A program made the position numbers and the translations under genes. 64,000 nucleotides of DNA. It comes from Escherichia coli. Its GTDB lineage: Bacteria > Pseudomonadota > Gammaproteobacteria > Enterobacterales > Enterobacteriaceae. The DNA lies in the NCBI RefSeq assembly GCF_003334405.1, contig NZ_QOWM01000002.1. One strand, 5' to 3'. Under the pieces are notes generated by a model that was not told the DNA's origin, ran no database searches, and saw only the letters and a list, made by a program, of their open reading frames with translations. Numbering within the stretch: position 1 is the first letter of the stretch; each line of letters starts with the position of its first letter. This document shows, one piece after another, positions 6,688 to 13,891 of this stretch.

Positions 6688-8046
<1,359 letters not shown>

Positions 8047-8256
8047 TTAATTAACTGATGATGAGCCTGGATTTCCGCTCTCACTGAATTTTTATGCAAA
8101 ATAAATGAGTTTTCATTTAATCATCTTTTATCGGAGACAGGAAGAGTTTAGTGTGTTTTTTGTAAAATAATGCGCTTAAGGGAGAGCAGGAGAAGGCAAA
8201 AGTATTCAACAAATGAAAGTGAACTGGATATTCATTCACATGATTAGCAATAAACG

Positions 8257-8286
8257 TTGACAAAATGTGGCGTGGATCACTATAAT
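8257..8286 (+). promoter_or_regulatory. Near-consensus sigma70 promoter (TTGACA, about 18 nt spacer, TATAAT) upstream of metY
   Basis: ttgacaaaatgtggcgtggatcactataat read directly; about 95 nt upstream of the tRNA. Confidence 0.5.
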
Positions 8287-8378
8287 GCCTGCAGATTTTA
8301 CGTCCCGTCTCGGTACACCAAATCCCAGCAGTATTTGCATTTTTTACCCAAAACGAGTAGAATTTGCCACGTTTCAGG

Positions 8379-8455
<77 letters not shown>

Positions 8456-8577
8456 CTTTCCCTTAGAGTCCTTTTTCAAATATACTGTGAAGACTTCGGC
8501 CTTCGTAGTGGGATTTGAAAAAATCCTTCTGGAAAGTGCTCCAGACCGCAGTTGCGGTTATAGGGTTCAGTTATATA

Positions 8578-8606: not shown

Positions 8607-8661
8607 TCTGACTACAGAATAACTGGGCTTTAGGCCCTTTTTTTATGTCTTGGGGGTGGGC

Positions 8662-9114
8662 TTGTCCACATTAGAGCAAAAATTAACAGAGATGATTACT
8701 GCGCCAGTTGAGGCCCTGGGTTTTGAACTGGTTGGCATCGAATTTATTCGCGGTCGCACATCCACACTGCGCATCTATATTGATAGTGAAGATGGCATCA
8801 ATGTTGATGATTGTGCTGATGTGAGCCACCAGGTAAGTGCTGTGCTGGATGTTGAAGATCCCATCACCGTTGCTTATAACCTGGAAGTCTCCTCACCGGG
8901 TCTCGATCGCCCACTGTTCACGGCTGAACACTACGCCCGTTTTGTCGGAGAAGAGGTGACTCTGGTTCTCCGTATGGCGGTACAAAACCGTCGTAAATGG
9001 CAGGGCGTTATCAAAGCGGTAGACGGTGAAATGATCACAGTTACCGTCGAAGGTAAAGATGAAGTGTTCGCGCTGAGTAATATCCAGAAGGCGAACCTGG
9101 TTCCCCACTTTTAA
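8662..9114 (+). CDS. rimP: ribosome maturation factor RimP
   Basis: Track ORF 8650..9114; N-terminus [12 protein letters not shown] suggests a UUG/GUG start near 8656-8662; first gene of the nusA-infB operon. Confidence 0.8.
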
Positions 9115-9141: not shown

Positions 9142-10629
<1,488 letters not shown>

Positions 10630-10653
10630 TAAACTGTAGCAGGAAGGAACAGC

Positions 10654-13326
10654 ATGACAGATGTAACGATTAAAACGCTGGCCGCAGAGCGACAGACCTC
10701 CGTGGAACGCCTGGTACAGCAATTTGCTGATGCAGGTATCCGGAAGTCTGCTGACGACTCTGTGTCTGCACAAGAGAAACAGACTTTGATTGACCACCTG
10801 AATCAGAAAAATTCAGGCCCGGACAAATTGACGCTGCAACGTAAAACACGCAGCACCCTTAACATTCCTGGTACCGGTGGAAAAAGCAAATCGGTACAAA
10901 TCGAAGTCCGCAAGAAACGCACCTTTGTGAAACGCGATCCGCAAGAGGCTGAACGCCTTGCAGCGGAAGAGCAAGCGCAGCGTGAAGCGGAAGAGCAAGC
11001 CCGTCGTGAGGCAGAAGAATCGGCTAAACGCGAGGCGCAACAAAAAGCTGAACGTGAGGCCGCAGAACAAGCTAAGCGTGAAGCTGCTGAACAAGCGAAA
11101 CGTGAAGCTGCGGAAAAAGACAAAGTGAGCAATCAACAAGACGATATGACTAAAAACGCCCAGGCTGAAAAAGCCCGCCGTGAGCAGGAAGCTGCAGAGC
11201 TCAAGCGTAAAGCTGAAGAAGAAGCGCGTCGTAAACTCGAAGAAGAAGCACGTCGCGTTGCTGAAGAAGCACGTCGTATGGCGGAAGAAAACAAATGGAC
11301 TGATAACGCGGAACCGACTGAAGATTCCAGCGATTATCACGTCACTACTTCTCAACATGCTCGCCAGGCAGAAGACGAAAGCGATCGTGAAGTCGAAGGC
11401 GGCCGTGGCCGTGGTCGTAACGCGAAAGCAGCGCGTCCGAAGAAAGGCAACAAACACGCTGAATCAAAAGCTGATCGTGAAGAAGCACGCGCAGCAGTAC
11501 GTGGCGGTAAAGGCGGAAAACGTAAAGGTTCTTCGCTGCAGCAAGGCTTCCAGAAGCCTGCTCAGGCCGTTAACCGTGACGTTGTGATCGGCGAAACTAT
11601 CACCGTTGGCGAACTGGCGAACAAGATGGCGGTTAAAGGCTCTCAGGTCATCAAAGCGATGATGAAACTGGGCGCAATGGCAACCATCAACCAGGTTATC
11701 GATCAGGAAACCGCACAGCTGGTTGCTGAAGAGATGGGCCATAAAGTTATCCTGCGTCGTGAAAACGAGCTGGAAGAGGCGGTAATGAGCGACCGTGACA
11801 CGGGTGCTGCGGCTGAACCGCGCGCGCCGGTTGTGACCATCATGGGTCACGTTGACCACGGTAAAACCTCTCTGCTGGACTACATTCGTTCAACGAAAGT
11901 GGCCTCTGGCGAAGCGGGCGGCATTACCCAGCACATTGGTGCATACCACGTTGAAACTGAAAACGGCATGATCACCTTCCTGGACACCCCGGGGCACGCC
12001 GCGTTTACTTCAATGCGTGCTCGTGGTGCGCAGGCAACGGACATCGTAGTCCTGGTTGTTGCTGCCGACGACGGTGTGATGCCGCAGACCATCGAAGCAA
12101 TCCAGCACGCGAAAGCGGCGCAGGTACCGGTGGTGGTTGCAGTGAACAAGATCGATAAACCAGAAGCTGATCCGGATCGCGTTAAGAACGAACTCTCCCA
12201 GTACGGCATCCTGCCGGAAGAGTGGGGCGGTGAAAGCCAGTTCGTACACGTATCTGCGAAAGCGGGTACCGGTATCGATGAACTGCTGGACGCTATCCTG
12301 CTGCAGGCGGAAGTTCTGGAGCTGAAAGCGGTACGTAAAGGTATGGCGAGCGGTGCGGTTATCGAATCCTTCCTCGATAAAGGTCGTGGTCCGGTTGCTA
12401 CCGTTCTGGTACGTGAAGGTACTCTGCACAAGGGCGATATCGTTCTGTGTGGCTTCGAATACGGTCGTGTTCGTGCGATGCGTAACGAACTGGGTCAGGA
12501 AGTGCTGGAAGCGGGTCCGTCCATTCCGGTGGAAATCCTCGGCCTGTCCGGCGTACCGGCTGCGGGTGATGAAGTTACCGTTGTACGTGACGAGAAGAAA
12601 GCGCGTGAAGTTGCACTCTATCGTCAGGGTAAATTCCGCGAAGTTAAACTGGCGCGTCAGCAGAAATCTAAACTCGAGAACATGTTCGCCAACATGACCG
12701 AAGGCGAAGTTCACGAAGTGAATATCGTCCTGAAGGCAGACGTACAGGGTTCTGTCGAAGCGATCTCCGACTCCTTGCTGAAACTGTCTACTGACGAAGT
12801 TAAAGTGAAGATCATCGGTTCTGGCGTAGGTGGTATCACCGAAACCGACGCCACCCTGGCTGCGGCGTCCAACGCCATCCTGGTTGGCTTTAACGTACGT
12901 GCTGATGCCTCTGCACGTAAAGTGATTGAAGCGGAAAGCCTGGATCTGCGTTACTACTCCGTCATCTATAACCTGATTGACGAAGTGAAAGCGGCGATGA
13001 GCGGTATGCTGTCTCCGGAACTGAAACAGCAGATTATCGGTCTGGCGGAAGTTCGTGACGTGTTCAAATCGCCGAAATTTGGTGCCATCGCAGGCTGTAT
13101 GGTTACCGAAGGTGTGGTTAAACGTCACAACCCGATCCGCGTTCTGCGTGACAACGTGGTTATCTACGAAGGCGAGCTGGAGTCCCTGCGCCGCTTCAAA
13201 GATGACGTTAACGAAGTCCGTAACGGTATGGAATGTGGTATCGGCGTTAAGAACTACAACGACGTCCGCACTGGCGATGTGATCGAAGTATTCGAAATCA
13301 TCGAGATCCAACGTACCATTGCTTAA
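10654..13326 (+). CDS. infB: translation initiation factor IF-2
   Basis: 890-aa ORF; GTPase motifs [25 protein letters not shown]; Glu/Ala/Arg/Lys-rich repeat region near the N-terminus. Confidence 0.95.
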
Positions 13327-13337
13327 GGTTTTTAGGG

Positions 13338-13420
13338 TTCCATGCGGGATAAGGCGTTTACGCTGCATCCGGCATGGATTGCCTGATGTGACGCTGGCGC
13401 GTCTTATCAGGTCAACGTGA
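13338..13420. repeat. REP-like palindromic units between infB and rbfA
   Basis: gcgggataaggcgtttacgctgcatccggca and gcctgatgtgacgctggcgcgtcttatcaggtc resemble REP consensus. Confidence 0.45.
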
Positions 13421-13447
13421 ACAGCCCTTCCACCTGAAATTAATTTT

Positions 13448-13476
13448 AAAAAGGGGCTAACAGCCCCTTTTTTGTC
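13448..13476 (+). terminator. Terminator/attenuator-like hairpin immediately upstream of rbfA
   Basis: aaaaaGGGGCTaacAGCCCCttttttgtc; ends about 14 nt before the rbfA ATG. Confidence 0.45.
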
Positions 13477-13489
13477 AGGAGAATTTATT

Positions 13490-13891
13490 ATGGCGAAAGA
13501 ATTTGGTCGCCCGCAGCGCGTAGCGCAGGAAATGCAAAAAGAGATCGCTCTCATCCTGCAGCGTGAAATTAAAGATCCTCGCCTGGGCATGATGACCACC
13601 GTTTCCGGTGTCGAAATGTCTCGCGACCTGGCGTATGCCAAAGTATATGTGACGTTCCTCAACGACAAAGATGAAGACGCGGTTAAAGCGGGCATCAAAG
13701 CGTTGCAAGAAGCTTCTGGTTTCATCCGCAGCCTGCTGGGGAAAGCGATGCGCCTGCGTATCGTGCCGGAACTGACCTTCTTCTACGACAACTCTCTGGT
13801 TGAAGGGATGCGCATGTCAAACCTGGTGACCAGCGTGGTCAAACATGACGAAGAACGTCGTGTTAACCCGGACGACAGCAAGGAGGACTAA
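13490..13891 (+). CDS. rbfA: ribosome-binding factor A
   Basis: Track ORF 13472..13891 trimmed to [14 protein letters not shown]. Confidence 0.92.

Follow-up and report, generated by a model that had tools for sequence, protein, structure and literature searches.

The tandem repeats in the 5' part of Escherichia coli infB are very probably the coding sequence of a periodic, charged helical spacer in translation initiation factor IF2, within its non-essential N-terminal part; in-frame alleles, probably products of slippage, occasionally arise in this sequence. The window, the whole 64,000-nucleotide stretch of DNA that was analyzed, carries infB on the plus strand at 10654-13326, encoding the 890-aa alpha form of IF2 as identified by the TIGR00487 profile, Pfam and the genome annotation. 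TIGR00487 matches residues 306-889 of the product with 987.9 bits against a cutoff of 424.4. Pfam places two IF2_N domains at residues 1-50 and 314-364, IF2_assoc at 56-94, GTP_EFTU at 393-549 and IF-2 at 665-779. An infB annotation is present in all 5,426 of the E. coli genomes, and the segment 10900-11350 is 100% identical to its counterparts in K-12 MG1655 and BL21(DE3). Upstream lies nusA (9142-10629); the ORFs 3' of infB are consistent with rbfA and truB, and with rpsO at 14984-15253.

The initial annotation had assigned the repeats to the N-domain of IF2, and the profile matches bear this out; the 52-residue peptide that it quoted corresponds to residues 104-155 of the 890-aa ORF. The repeats thus lie in the N-terminal, non-catalytic part of the protein, between the first IF2_N/IF2_assoc block (residues 1-94) and the second IF2_N domain (314-364). 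This layout of IF2_N, IF2_assoc, helices and IF2_N resembles a type listed for Pseudomonadota in a published survey of IF2 N-terminal extensions, which covers extension length across phyla rather than repeat units or variation within a species.

Anatomy of the two repeat arrays

The region had been described as a single stretch of imperfect tandem near-repeats at 10950-11300. The repeats are real and the DNA motifs quoted for them were found, but they form two arrays, at 10939-11130 and 11188-11289, separated by a non-repetitive segment of 57 nt (11131-11187). Tandem Repeats Finder reported a period of 24 at 10962-11018 (84% matches), 11005-11119 (74%) and 11206-11269 (78%), and a period of 21 at 11242-11289 (85%). 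A direct-repeat search returned eight in-register copies at 24-nt spacing, and the same search found no inverted repeats in the repeat region. The self-comparison proposed in the initial annotation gave a clear periodicity: 12-mer matches with at most one mismatch pile up at offset 24, and self-identity over 10950-11130 was 0.675 at a lag of 24, 0.594 at 48 and 0.55 at 72. At the level of individual motifs, GAAGCGGAAGAGCAAGC occurs at 10984-11000 with a one-mismatch copy at 10960-10976, and CGTGAAGCTGCTGAACAAGCGAAA occurs at 11077-11100 with in-register neighbors that differ from it by 4-5 mismatches.

Array 1 (10939-11130, plus strand) consists, by Tandem Repeats Finder and register analysis, of eight 24-nt, 8-codon units with the consensus AAEQAKRE. 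The array opens at 10939 with a degenerate unit, U0 (PQEAERLA), followed at 10963-11106 by the full units U1-U6, the last two of which read AAEQAKRE; the final unit, U7 (AAEKDKVS, 11107-11130), is again degenerate. Neighboring units share 58-83% DNA identity. Two sites within the array carry longer exact repeats. Site A (10962-11000) is a 15-nt direct repeat, AGCGGAAGAGCAAGC, present at 10962-10976 and 10986-11000, at which the +24 and -24 alleles of U1/U2 have their breakpoint. Site B (11059-11111) comprises U5 and U6, with direct repeats CGTGAAGCTGC at 11077-11087 and 11101-11111 and GAACAAGC at 11065-11072 and 11089-11096; among strains it holds one, two (as here), three or four copies of AAEQAKRE.

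Array 2 (11188-11289, plus strand) was delimited by Tandem Repeats Finder and the repeat search, and has units of 24, 24 and 21 nt of the form EEEARRxx, its peptide units reading AAELKRKA / EEEARRKL / EEEARRVA / EEARRMA. Its direct repeats are GAAGAAGAAGC at 11215-11225 and 11239-11249 (lag 24) and GAAGAAGCACGTCG at 11242-11255 and 11263-11276 (lag 21).

Origin of the DNA periodicity

The 24-nt periodicity is far above chance. Lag-24 identity over 10951-11127 is 0.693. Shuffling the bases of the same segment 2,000 times gave best-lag identities that averaged 0.383 and never exceeded 0.464; when its codons were shuffled 2,000 times, the average was 0.461 and the highest value 0.581. The DNA periodicity is nevertheless mostly the shadow of a protein repeat, because resampling of synonymous codons reproduces it and each unit is conserved at its own position. 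When codons were drawn from the gene's own usage for an unchanged protein, lag-24 identity was 0.657 +/- 0.023 (P = 0.085 for the observed value). Where a residue recurs one unit further on, its codon is also the same in 18 of 33 cases, with 16.4 expected, and lag-24 identity falls from 0.77 and 0.78 at the first and second codon positions to 0.53 at the third. Across 81 Enterobacteriaceae species, orthologous units share 0.79-0.94 DNA identity while paralogous units share 0.66, and the positional orthologue is the best match for 88.5% of units. The distance from K93 to V158 is identical in 65 of these species and exactly 8 aa longer in 12. Together, the synonymous resampling and the comparison of orthologues with paralogues rule out homogenization of the units at the DNA level. 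The periodicity probably stems from an ancient protein repeat and codon bias rather than from recent amplification.

The tandem arrangement of the units and the existence of copy-number alleles could also suggest a young DNA minisatellite, homogenized by gene conversion or repeated amplification and acting as a true hypervariable or contingency locus. We find this scarcely tenable, and the present data already contradict it: similarity between units is not above what the protein repeat demands, and orthologous units are far more alike than paralogous ones. The arrays do share with coding-region minisatellites (VNTRs) and contingency loci their tandem units of at least ~10 nt, copy-number polymorphism among strains and breakpoints at direct repeats. 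They differ in that the units are only 58-83% alike, ancient and positionally conserved, and bear no mark of concerted evolution at the DNA level. Variation is also rare, with ~99% of the 5,426 genomes sharing one length and only ~1% departing from it, and in one apparent clone all 29 of 29 genomes have a single allele, a span shorter by 24 nt (the sequence of one of these was read). Unit lengths of 24 or 21 nt are divisible by three, so alleles stay in frame, with no shift of frame or promoter spacing and nothing switched on or off.

The initial annotation also held that the repeats generate two spurious reverse-strand ORFs. The coordinates and the verdict of spuriousness stand: neither ORF matched a family in a search against NCBIfam, and both are antisense to a strongly supported gene. 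The repeats are not, though, the cause of the longer one. This 214-aa ORF (10813-11457, minus strand) lies in the codon-aligned frame, and infB contains only four TCA codons and no TTA or CTA; two of the TCA codons, at 10813 and 11464, bound the ORF exactly. Antisense ORFs of 571 aa over the non-repetitive part of infB and of 489 aa over nusA arise in the same way, and we therefore attribute the 214-aa ORF to codon usage. Only the 109-aa ORF (10803-11132, minus strand, another frame) plausibly owes its length to array 1, which it overlies and which is poor in T (8.9%), with 1.0 antisense-stop trinucleotides per 100 nt versus 2.6 in the whole gene. As candidate genes, the antisense ORFs were rejected, having no family matches and being accounted for by codon usage.

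Helices, charge pattern and the IF2-beta starts

An AlphaFold2 model computed with 33 species predicts two long helices in the repeat region, at residues 96-158 (pLDDT 81-88) and 167-214 (pLDDT 73-83), with a break at 159-166; array 2 encodes part of the second. Residues 215-313 were modeled with pLDDT below 50. The pTM is only 0.24, so the arrangement of the helices cannot be read from the model. In NMR work on a 1-157 fragment of IF2, a helix spans residues 98-157, and it is repetitive, mostly hydrophilic and moves independently of the N-terminal subdomain (PMC4611024). This domain I helix of K-12 IF2 is the same object as the helix of array 1, with no sequence difference; to it the present analysis adds the anatomy at the DNA level, a test of whether the repeat originates in the protein or in the DNA, array 2 and the series of alleles among strains.

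Opposite charges four residues apart (i,i+4) are strongly over-represented: 17 such pairs occur in array 1, against 8.4 +/- 2.2 in composition-matched shuffles, and 20 in array 2, against 8.0 +/- 2.1. No shuffle out of 5,000 had as many pairs as observed, and the excess is ~4-6 sd. The unit A-(E/A)-E-Q-A-(K/R/Q)-R-E sets opposite charges at this spacing. All of the full units U1-U6 have A, A, R and E at positions 1, 5, 7 and 8, respectively. One of the 60 residues of array 1 is hydrophobic, Pro and Gly are absent, and the hydrophobic moment over the whole array is very low (0.094).

Single-alpha-helix (SAH) domains serve as rigid spacers in myosins. Like the ER/K type of such domains (PMC5812594), the IF2 arrays are rich in Glu and Arg/Lys, have an excess of opposite charges at i,i+4, lack a hydrophobic seam, a heptad and helix breakers, and form a long continuous helix by AlphaFold2 and NMR that links folded domains. 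In contrast to classic E4K4-like SAHs, the IF2 helix is richer in Ala and Gln, follows a strict 8-residue unit and is bacterial. A literature search for a link between IF2 and charged single alpha-helices returned nothing specific. From the charge pattern and the structure prediction we infer that the native protein may adopt this single-alpha-helix state. An ER/K-type helix would remain helical without a hydrophobic core and could serve as a semi-rigid spacer, each unit adding ~12 Å. Array 1 would make up the last ~60 residues unique to the alpha isoform and would connect the small N-terminal domain with the remainder of IF2, and array 2 would be part of a second helix that begins just after the IF2-beta start.

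An alternative is that the region is simply a disordered, low-complexity charged stretch whose function, such as RNA-dependent condensation in the cold, is set by composition and length, the 8-residue period being structurally meaningless. In its favor, the N-terminal region of IF2 has been described as disordered and driving phase separation, with the beta isoform losing condensation (10.1101/2025.02.02.631968), the extension has been predicted to be largely unstructured (PMC12919033), and residues 215-313 are indeed modeled at low confidence. We nonetheless consider it unlikely, given the NMR helix at 98-157, the high pLDDT of the 96-158 helix, the invariant unit positions, the excess of i,i+4 pairs, and a unit number kept in 65 of 81 species with units conserved by position. 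The alternative is also compatible with the helical spacer, since a charged helix can be mobile and still favor condensation.

Alternatively, the helices at 96-158 and 167-214 could pack against each other as an antiparallel hairpin or coiled coil with an Ala-based seam. The short break of only 8 residues between two long helices and the invariant Ala at unit positions 1 and 5 are consistent with such packing, yet we judge it quite improbable. Array 1 has a single large hydrophobic residue among its 60 and a low hydrophobic moment, and an 8-residue period is neither heptad nor hendecad. Moreover, the 1-157 fragment is helical at 98-157 without the second helix, the beta isoform naturally carries helix 2 without helix 1, and natural alleles alter helix 1 by -32 to +16 aa with no matching change in helix 2.

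The charged helical spacer encoded by array 1 would end where the second isoform begins. Two in-frame codons, GTG (Val158, 11125-11127) at the end of array 1 and ATG (Met165, 11146-11148) within the 57-nt segment between the arrays, lie with U7 in a plus-strand feature at 11107-11148; we take these to be the exact start codons of IF2-beta. They are present as candidate starts at the end of the first helix, their use being ascribed from the literature. The break between the predicted helices (159-166) coincides with them. IF2-beta is described as the isoform without the first ~158 residues (10.1101/2025.02.02.631968).

An RNA-level role for the repeats, as a purine-rich, unstructured leader that enables internal initiation at the beta GTG and ATG, is a further alternative. 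Array 1 terminates exactly at GTG158, and synonymous-codon entropy across the 81 species reaches its lowest value of the whole N-region, 0.09, at codons 153-160. This constraint is, however, limited to the degenerate U7; entropy elsewhere in the N-region, U1-U6 included, is an ordinary 0.3-0.6. Natural alleles freely gain and lose units among U1-U6 and never touch U7, which is intact in every length-variant allele whose sequence was read. The predicted folding energy of the RNA from 10939-11160 is unremarkable (z = -0.70), and we regard a selected RNA role as very doubtful. On the same value, special structure or openness of the repeat mRNA was rejected. A search within the repeats for promoter-like sites found none, and terminator-like matches were at chance level.

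Length alleles among E. coli genomes

The repeats had been flagged as potential slippage sites, and the comparison of strains that this called for confirmed length variation. Whole-unit indels of -96, -48, -24, -21, +21, +24 or +48 nt occur in at least 55 of 5,426 complete E. coli genomes, always in frame and in an infB annotated as intact. The larger changes include -96 nt in N68, -48 nt in STEC2018-553 and +48 nt in OkiPb01695 and SY033. This census is a lower bound, obtained with composite queries containing several unit deletions, which lift variants above the wild type. The ranking of variants by the queries was simulated first; a second design was less clean, with duplication alleles not ranking above the wild type. 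Array 1 has 2, 4, 5, 6, 7 or 8 full units among E. coli genomes, and array 2 has alleles of -24, -21 and +21 nt. At site A, +24 alleles occur in BS74R-D, AST198 and SY033, and -24 alleles in N18-04097, Z1323PEC0008, ETEC4077 and ETEC4079; the -24 allele is also the standard IF2 of Shigella flexneri (882 aa).

All but two of the alleles have breakpoints at the longest exact direct repeats of matching lag: 15 nt (lag 24), 14 nt (lag 21), 11 nt (lag 24), 10 nt (lag 96) and 8 nt (lag 48). The exceptions are the +48 allele of OkiPb01695 and the +24 allele at U4 of NR301, where the flanking homologies, judged by eye, fall below the 8-nt cut-off. One and the same allele sits on 2-4 distinct haplotypes of flanking SNPs, suggesting that it arose more than once. 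We count ~19 independent events, a rough lower bound based on 526 nt of flank, since alleles could also have been carried between backgrounds by recombination.

The variant genomes include many recent long-read assemblies, and one Nissle 1917 assembly has a plainly odd extra infB fragment, which raises the question of assembly or sequencing artefacts in repeat DNA. Such an origin is highly improbable. Every variant is an exact whole-unit difference with the frame kept, and the arrays, at less than 200 nt, are far below read length. The variant proteins also recur on contigs of independent origin: the 882-aa IF2 on at least 1,000 contigs as the reference S. flexneri protein and on a further record of 353 contigs, and the 898-aa IF2 on 398. 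Even the rarest allele, the 858-aa IF2, is on record under a second, separate NCBI accession, on a 717-kb contig.

Slippage appears to be real but rare, although its mechanism and the near-neutrality of the alleles are conditional readings. Neighboring units share exact words of 8-15 nt, at which replication slippage or unequal exchange could add or remove whole units. In-frame alleles would survive at low frequency because the helix is modular and the region dispensable for core IF2 function, and at least one length allele has become standard in a lineage, that of Shigella flexneri. Units that are only 58-83% alike are a poor substrate for slippage, which fits the low frequency. Our literature search turned up no relevant prior report of infB repeat-length polymorphism; others cite Steffensen et al. 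1997 (FEBS Lett 419:281), whose title calls IF2 "an extremely conserved protein".

There is a slim prospect that the length of the alpha-specific helix is a tunable trait under selection and that the recurrent alleles reflect adaptation. If so, a change of ~12 Å per unit would alter the reach from the NusA-binding N-terminal domain to the ribosome-bound core, or cold-induced condensation. Candidates are the standard S. flexneri allele (-8 aa) and, from the three cerebrospinal-fluid isolates N10, N25 and N68, alleles of +8 and -32 aa.

Textbook E. coli biology already includes infB, the repetitive N-terminal helix of IF2 and the IF2 isoforms. For annotation, the periodic DNA in infB should carry no flag for a satellite or mobile feature, and the long antisense ORFs over the gene should not be annotated. 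For IF2 itself, the natural alleles with 2-8 units, among them the 858-aa form and the 882-aa form of S. flexneri, provide a ready series for testing the effects of helix length, for which possible readouts are IF2-NusA coupling, cold adaptation, condensates and the roles in DNA repair that have been reported for IF2-alpha.

Repeat arrays in the N-region of IF2

The repeats lie within infB, an 890-codon open reading frame (ORF; 10654-13326, + strand) that contains both arrays and, at 987.9 bits, far exceeds the cutoff of 424 for the NCBIfam IF-2 equivalog, with nusA (9142-10629) directly upstream. A Pfam scan of IF2 placed IF2_N at residues 1-50, IF2_assoc at 56-94 and a second IF2_N at 314-364, followed by the GTPase and IF-2 domains; residues 95-313 are without any Pfam domain. 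The segment 10900-11350 shares 100% identity with E. coli K-12 MG1655 and BL21(DE3) and matches infB in every one of the 5,426 complete E. coli genomes in the search. One of the 5,433 places it matched is an infB N-region fragment on a plasmid record. Upstream of the nusA operon, a 447-aa ORF (6688-8031, - strand) resembles argG (argininosuccinate synthase) by eye, and a 120-aa ORF (8117-8479, - strand) preceding a rimP-like ORF (8650-9114) may overlap a tRNA gene.

The initial annotation described imperfect repeats encoding the IF2 N-domain, and we confirm this description, clarified as a repeat driven by the protein. The peptide it reported is IF2 residues 104-155, within the infB ORF, and its DNA motifs are present at 10984-11000 and 11077-11100. 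Tandem Repeats Finder recovered period-24 arrays at 10962-11018, 11005-11119 and 11206-11269 and a period-21 array at 11242-11289, in agreement with a separate repeat search that found eight in-register copies at 24-nt spacing. The periodicity expected on self-comparison was seen across 10950-11130, with base identity of 0.675, 0.594 and 0.55 at lags of 24, 48 and 72. Lag-24 identity over 10951-11127 is 0.693, while the best lag of 2,000 base shuffles reached at most 0.464 and that of 2,000 codon shuffles at most 0.581. Given the repeat finders and lag identities above those of the shuffles, the periodicity is real. Array 1 (10939-11130) consists of a degenerate first unit (U0), six full units (U1-U6) and a degenerate last unit, AAEKDKVS (U7); array 2 (11188-11289) is built of EEEARRxx-type units of 24 and 21 nt.

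A conserved protein repeat and its shadow in the DNA

The array 1 unit reads A-(E/A)-E-Q-A-(K/R/Q)-R-E, with A1, A5, R7 and E8 invariant in the six full units. Opposite-charge pairs four residues apart number 17 in array 1 and 20 in array 2, compared with 8.4 ± 2.2 and 8.0 ± 2.1 in composition-matched shuffles, and in array 1 large hydrophobic residues are limited to one in 60, with proline and glycine absent. This charge pattern and the absence of a hydrophobic seam fit an ER/K-type single alpha-helix, and we infer that the arrays form such a semi-rigid spacer. Using a 33-species alignment, AlphaFold2 predicts two continuous helices, residues 96-158 (pLDDT 81-88) and 167-214 (pLDDT 73-83), with a break of low confidence between them at 159-166. 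The prediction agrees with NMR work summarised in PMC4611024, in which a compact subdomain (residues 2-50) is followed by an irregular stretch (51-97) and a helix at 98-157. Elsewhere the N-region as a whole has been described as disordered and as forming condensates (PMC12919033; 10.1101/2025.02.02.631968), a view that is compatible with a single helix.

When the protein was held fixed and every codon redrawn from infB's own codon usage, lag-24 DNA identity was 0.657 ± 0.023, which the observed 0.693 does not significantly exceed (P = 0.085). Where residues match one unit apart, their codons are also identical in 18 of 33 cases (16.4 expected), and lag-24 identity by codon position is 0.77, 0.78 and only 0.53 at the first, second and third positions. 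Comparison with 80 other Enterobacteriaceae species (81 in total) showed the same K93-V158 distance in 65, eight additional residues in 12 and one fewer in four. DNA identity is 0.79-0.94 between orthologous units versus 0.66 between units within one species, and for 88.5% of units the best match is the positional orthologue. With a conserved span and orthologous units closer than those of the same species, the array is ancient. By these sequence comparisons, each array 1 unit has a separate history without concerted evolution, and the DNA periodicity is a shadow of the conserved protein repeat.

Array 1 ends in GTG (Val158, 11125), followed by ATG (Met165, 11146); these two codons are the in-frame starts of the shorter IF2-beta forms. 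Across the 81 species, codons 153-160 have the lowest synonymous-codon entropy (0.09) of the 365-codon infB N-region, entropy in U1-U6 is ordinary (0.3-0.6), and RNA folding predicted for 10939-11160 shows nothing unusual (z = -0.70). RNA-level constraint therefore sits on the terminal degenerate unit, the region of internal initiation, and not on the repeats as such. A second pocket of very low synonymous variability (0.166 across the 81 species) covers codons 329-336 (11638-11661), within the second IF2_N domain. Variability is also low at codons 1-24 (10654-10725; 0.17-0.30), as would be expected where translation initiates or at the nusA-infB junction.

Both reverse-strand ORFs that had been ascribed to the repeats exist, and neither matches a family, but the repeats do not account for the 214-aa ORF (10813-11457). 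infB has no TTA or CTA codons and only four TCA codons (10813, 11464, 11890 and 12010), whose positions are the exact limits of the codon-aligned antisense ORFs 10813-11457, 11464-11859 and 12010-13725; the 214-aa ORF is thus an artefact of codon usage. Long codon-aligned antisense ORFs also cover the non-repetitive rest of infB and nusA. The T-poor array 1 (8.9% T; 1.0 antisense-stop trinucleotides per 100 nt versus 2.6 gene-wide) underlies only the 109-aa ORF (10803-11132), which is read in a different frame. The codon-aligned ORFs of 489 aa over nusA (9328-10797, - strand) and 571 aa over infB (12010-13725, - strand) are annotation traps, not genes, those over infB arising because TTA, CTA and TCA codons are near-absent.

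Length alleles and their breakpoints

A plain search with 10900-11350 returned two genomes with a 24-nt longer span and one odd partial match. In a local simulation, one 24-nt indel gave ~94.8% identity, in line with the 44 genomes that scored 90-95% in that search. Composite queries lacking several units, which rank variant genomes above wild type, then provided a census in which 24 representative variant loci were read and aligned and all counts are lower bounds. Variants occur in at least 55 of 5,426 genomes (1.0%; ~26 non-redundant strains), bearing out the suggestion that this segment varies in length across strains. Every allele found involves whole units, in frame, with infB annotated as intact, and U7, which holds the beta start, is unaltered in every allele whose sequence was read.

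Array 1 varies in at least 21 genomes. Losses comprise 96 nt (U2-U5; an 858-aa IF2) in N68, 48 nt (U3-U4) in STEC2018-553, and 24 nt at site A (U1/U2, 10962-11000; at least four genomes) or site B (U5/U6, 11059-11111; at least six). Gains comprise 24 nt at site A (at least two genomes), at U4 (duplicated in NR301) or at site B (at least four), 48 nt at site B in OkiPb01695, and 24 nt at both sites in SY033. Array 2 varies in at least 34 genomes, with -24 nt in at least 29 (apparently one clone), -21 nt in at least four records (three strains) and +21 nt in at least one genome. Three of the 21 array 1 variant genomes, strains N10, N25 and N68 (loci L016, L017 and L022), are cerebrospinal-fluid isolates with adjacent accessions, apparently from one collection; two carry +8 aa and one -32 aa, which may reflect lineage structure or a coincidence of sampling.

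Assembly artefacts were ruled out as the source of the alleles by recurrence in an exact-sequence look-up of the variant proteins in a 15-billion-protein collection. For site A, the -24 protein (882 aa), named there as Shigella flexneri IF2 (IF2_SHIFL), occurs on at least 1,000 contigs; for site B, the -24 form occurs on 353 and the +24 form (898 aa) on 398. The 858-aa protein is also recorded under its own NCBI accession, on a 717-kb contig that seems to belong to an assembly other than that of the N68 chromosome. Separately, the Nissle 1917 assembly GCF_000714595.1, in which the query matched five places in the record, has an extra, divergent partial infB copy (L025; NZ_CP007799.1, 5112175-5113221) with other repeat units and one unit fewer. 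This copy comes after a partial, nusA-like helix-hairpin-helix fragment and carries a pseudogene annotation ('partial in the middle of a contig'); it seems to be foreign or misassembled DNA, not a genuine second infB.

Most breakpoints fall on whichever exact direct repeat is longest at the lag in question. AGCGGAAGAGCAAGC (15 nt, lag 24) accounts for site A ±24, CGTGAAGCTGC (11 nt, lag 24) for site B ±24, AGCGTGAAGC (10 nt, lag 96) for -96 and CGTGAGGC (8 nt, lag 48) for -48; in array 2, GAAGAAGCACGTCG (14 nt, lag 21) accounts for ±21 and GAAGAAGAAGC (11 nt, lag 24) for -24. The exceptions, site B +48 (OkiPb01695) and U4 +24 (NR301), are by eye apparently flanked only by homologies below the 8-nt cut-off. 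The overall pattern is as expected from slipped-strand mispairing, or from unequal exchange between short direct repeats, in keeping with the earlier proposal of potential slippage sites. Because identical alleles occur on differing flanking SNP haplotypes (four for site B -24, three for site B +24 and two each for site A -24 and -21), the 526 nt of flank would indicate ~19 or more independent events; recombination may instead have placed some identical alleles on differing haplotypes.

The repetitive helix of IF2 domain I is already known, from E. coli K-12 itself, and as a feature of infB the repeat is of low interest overall. As far as our limited literature searches show, the allele census and breakpoint map are undescribed, and they represent an incremental addition to what is known of it.
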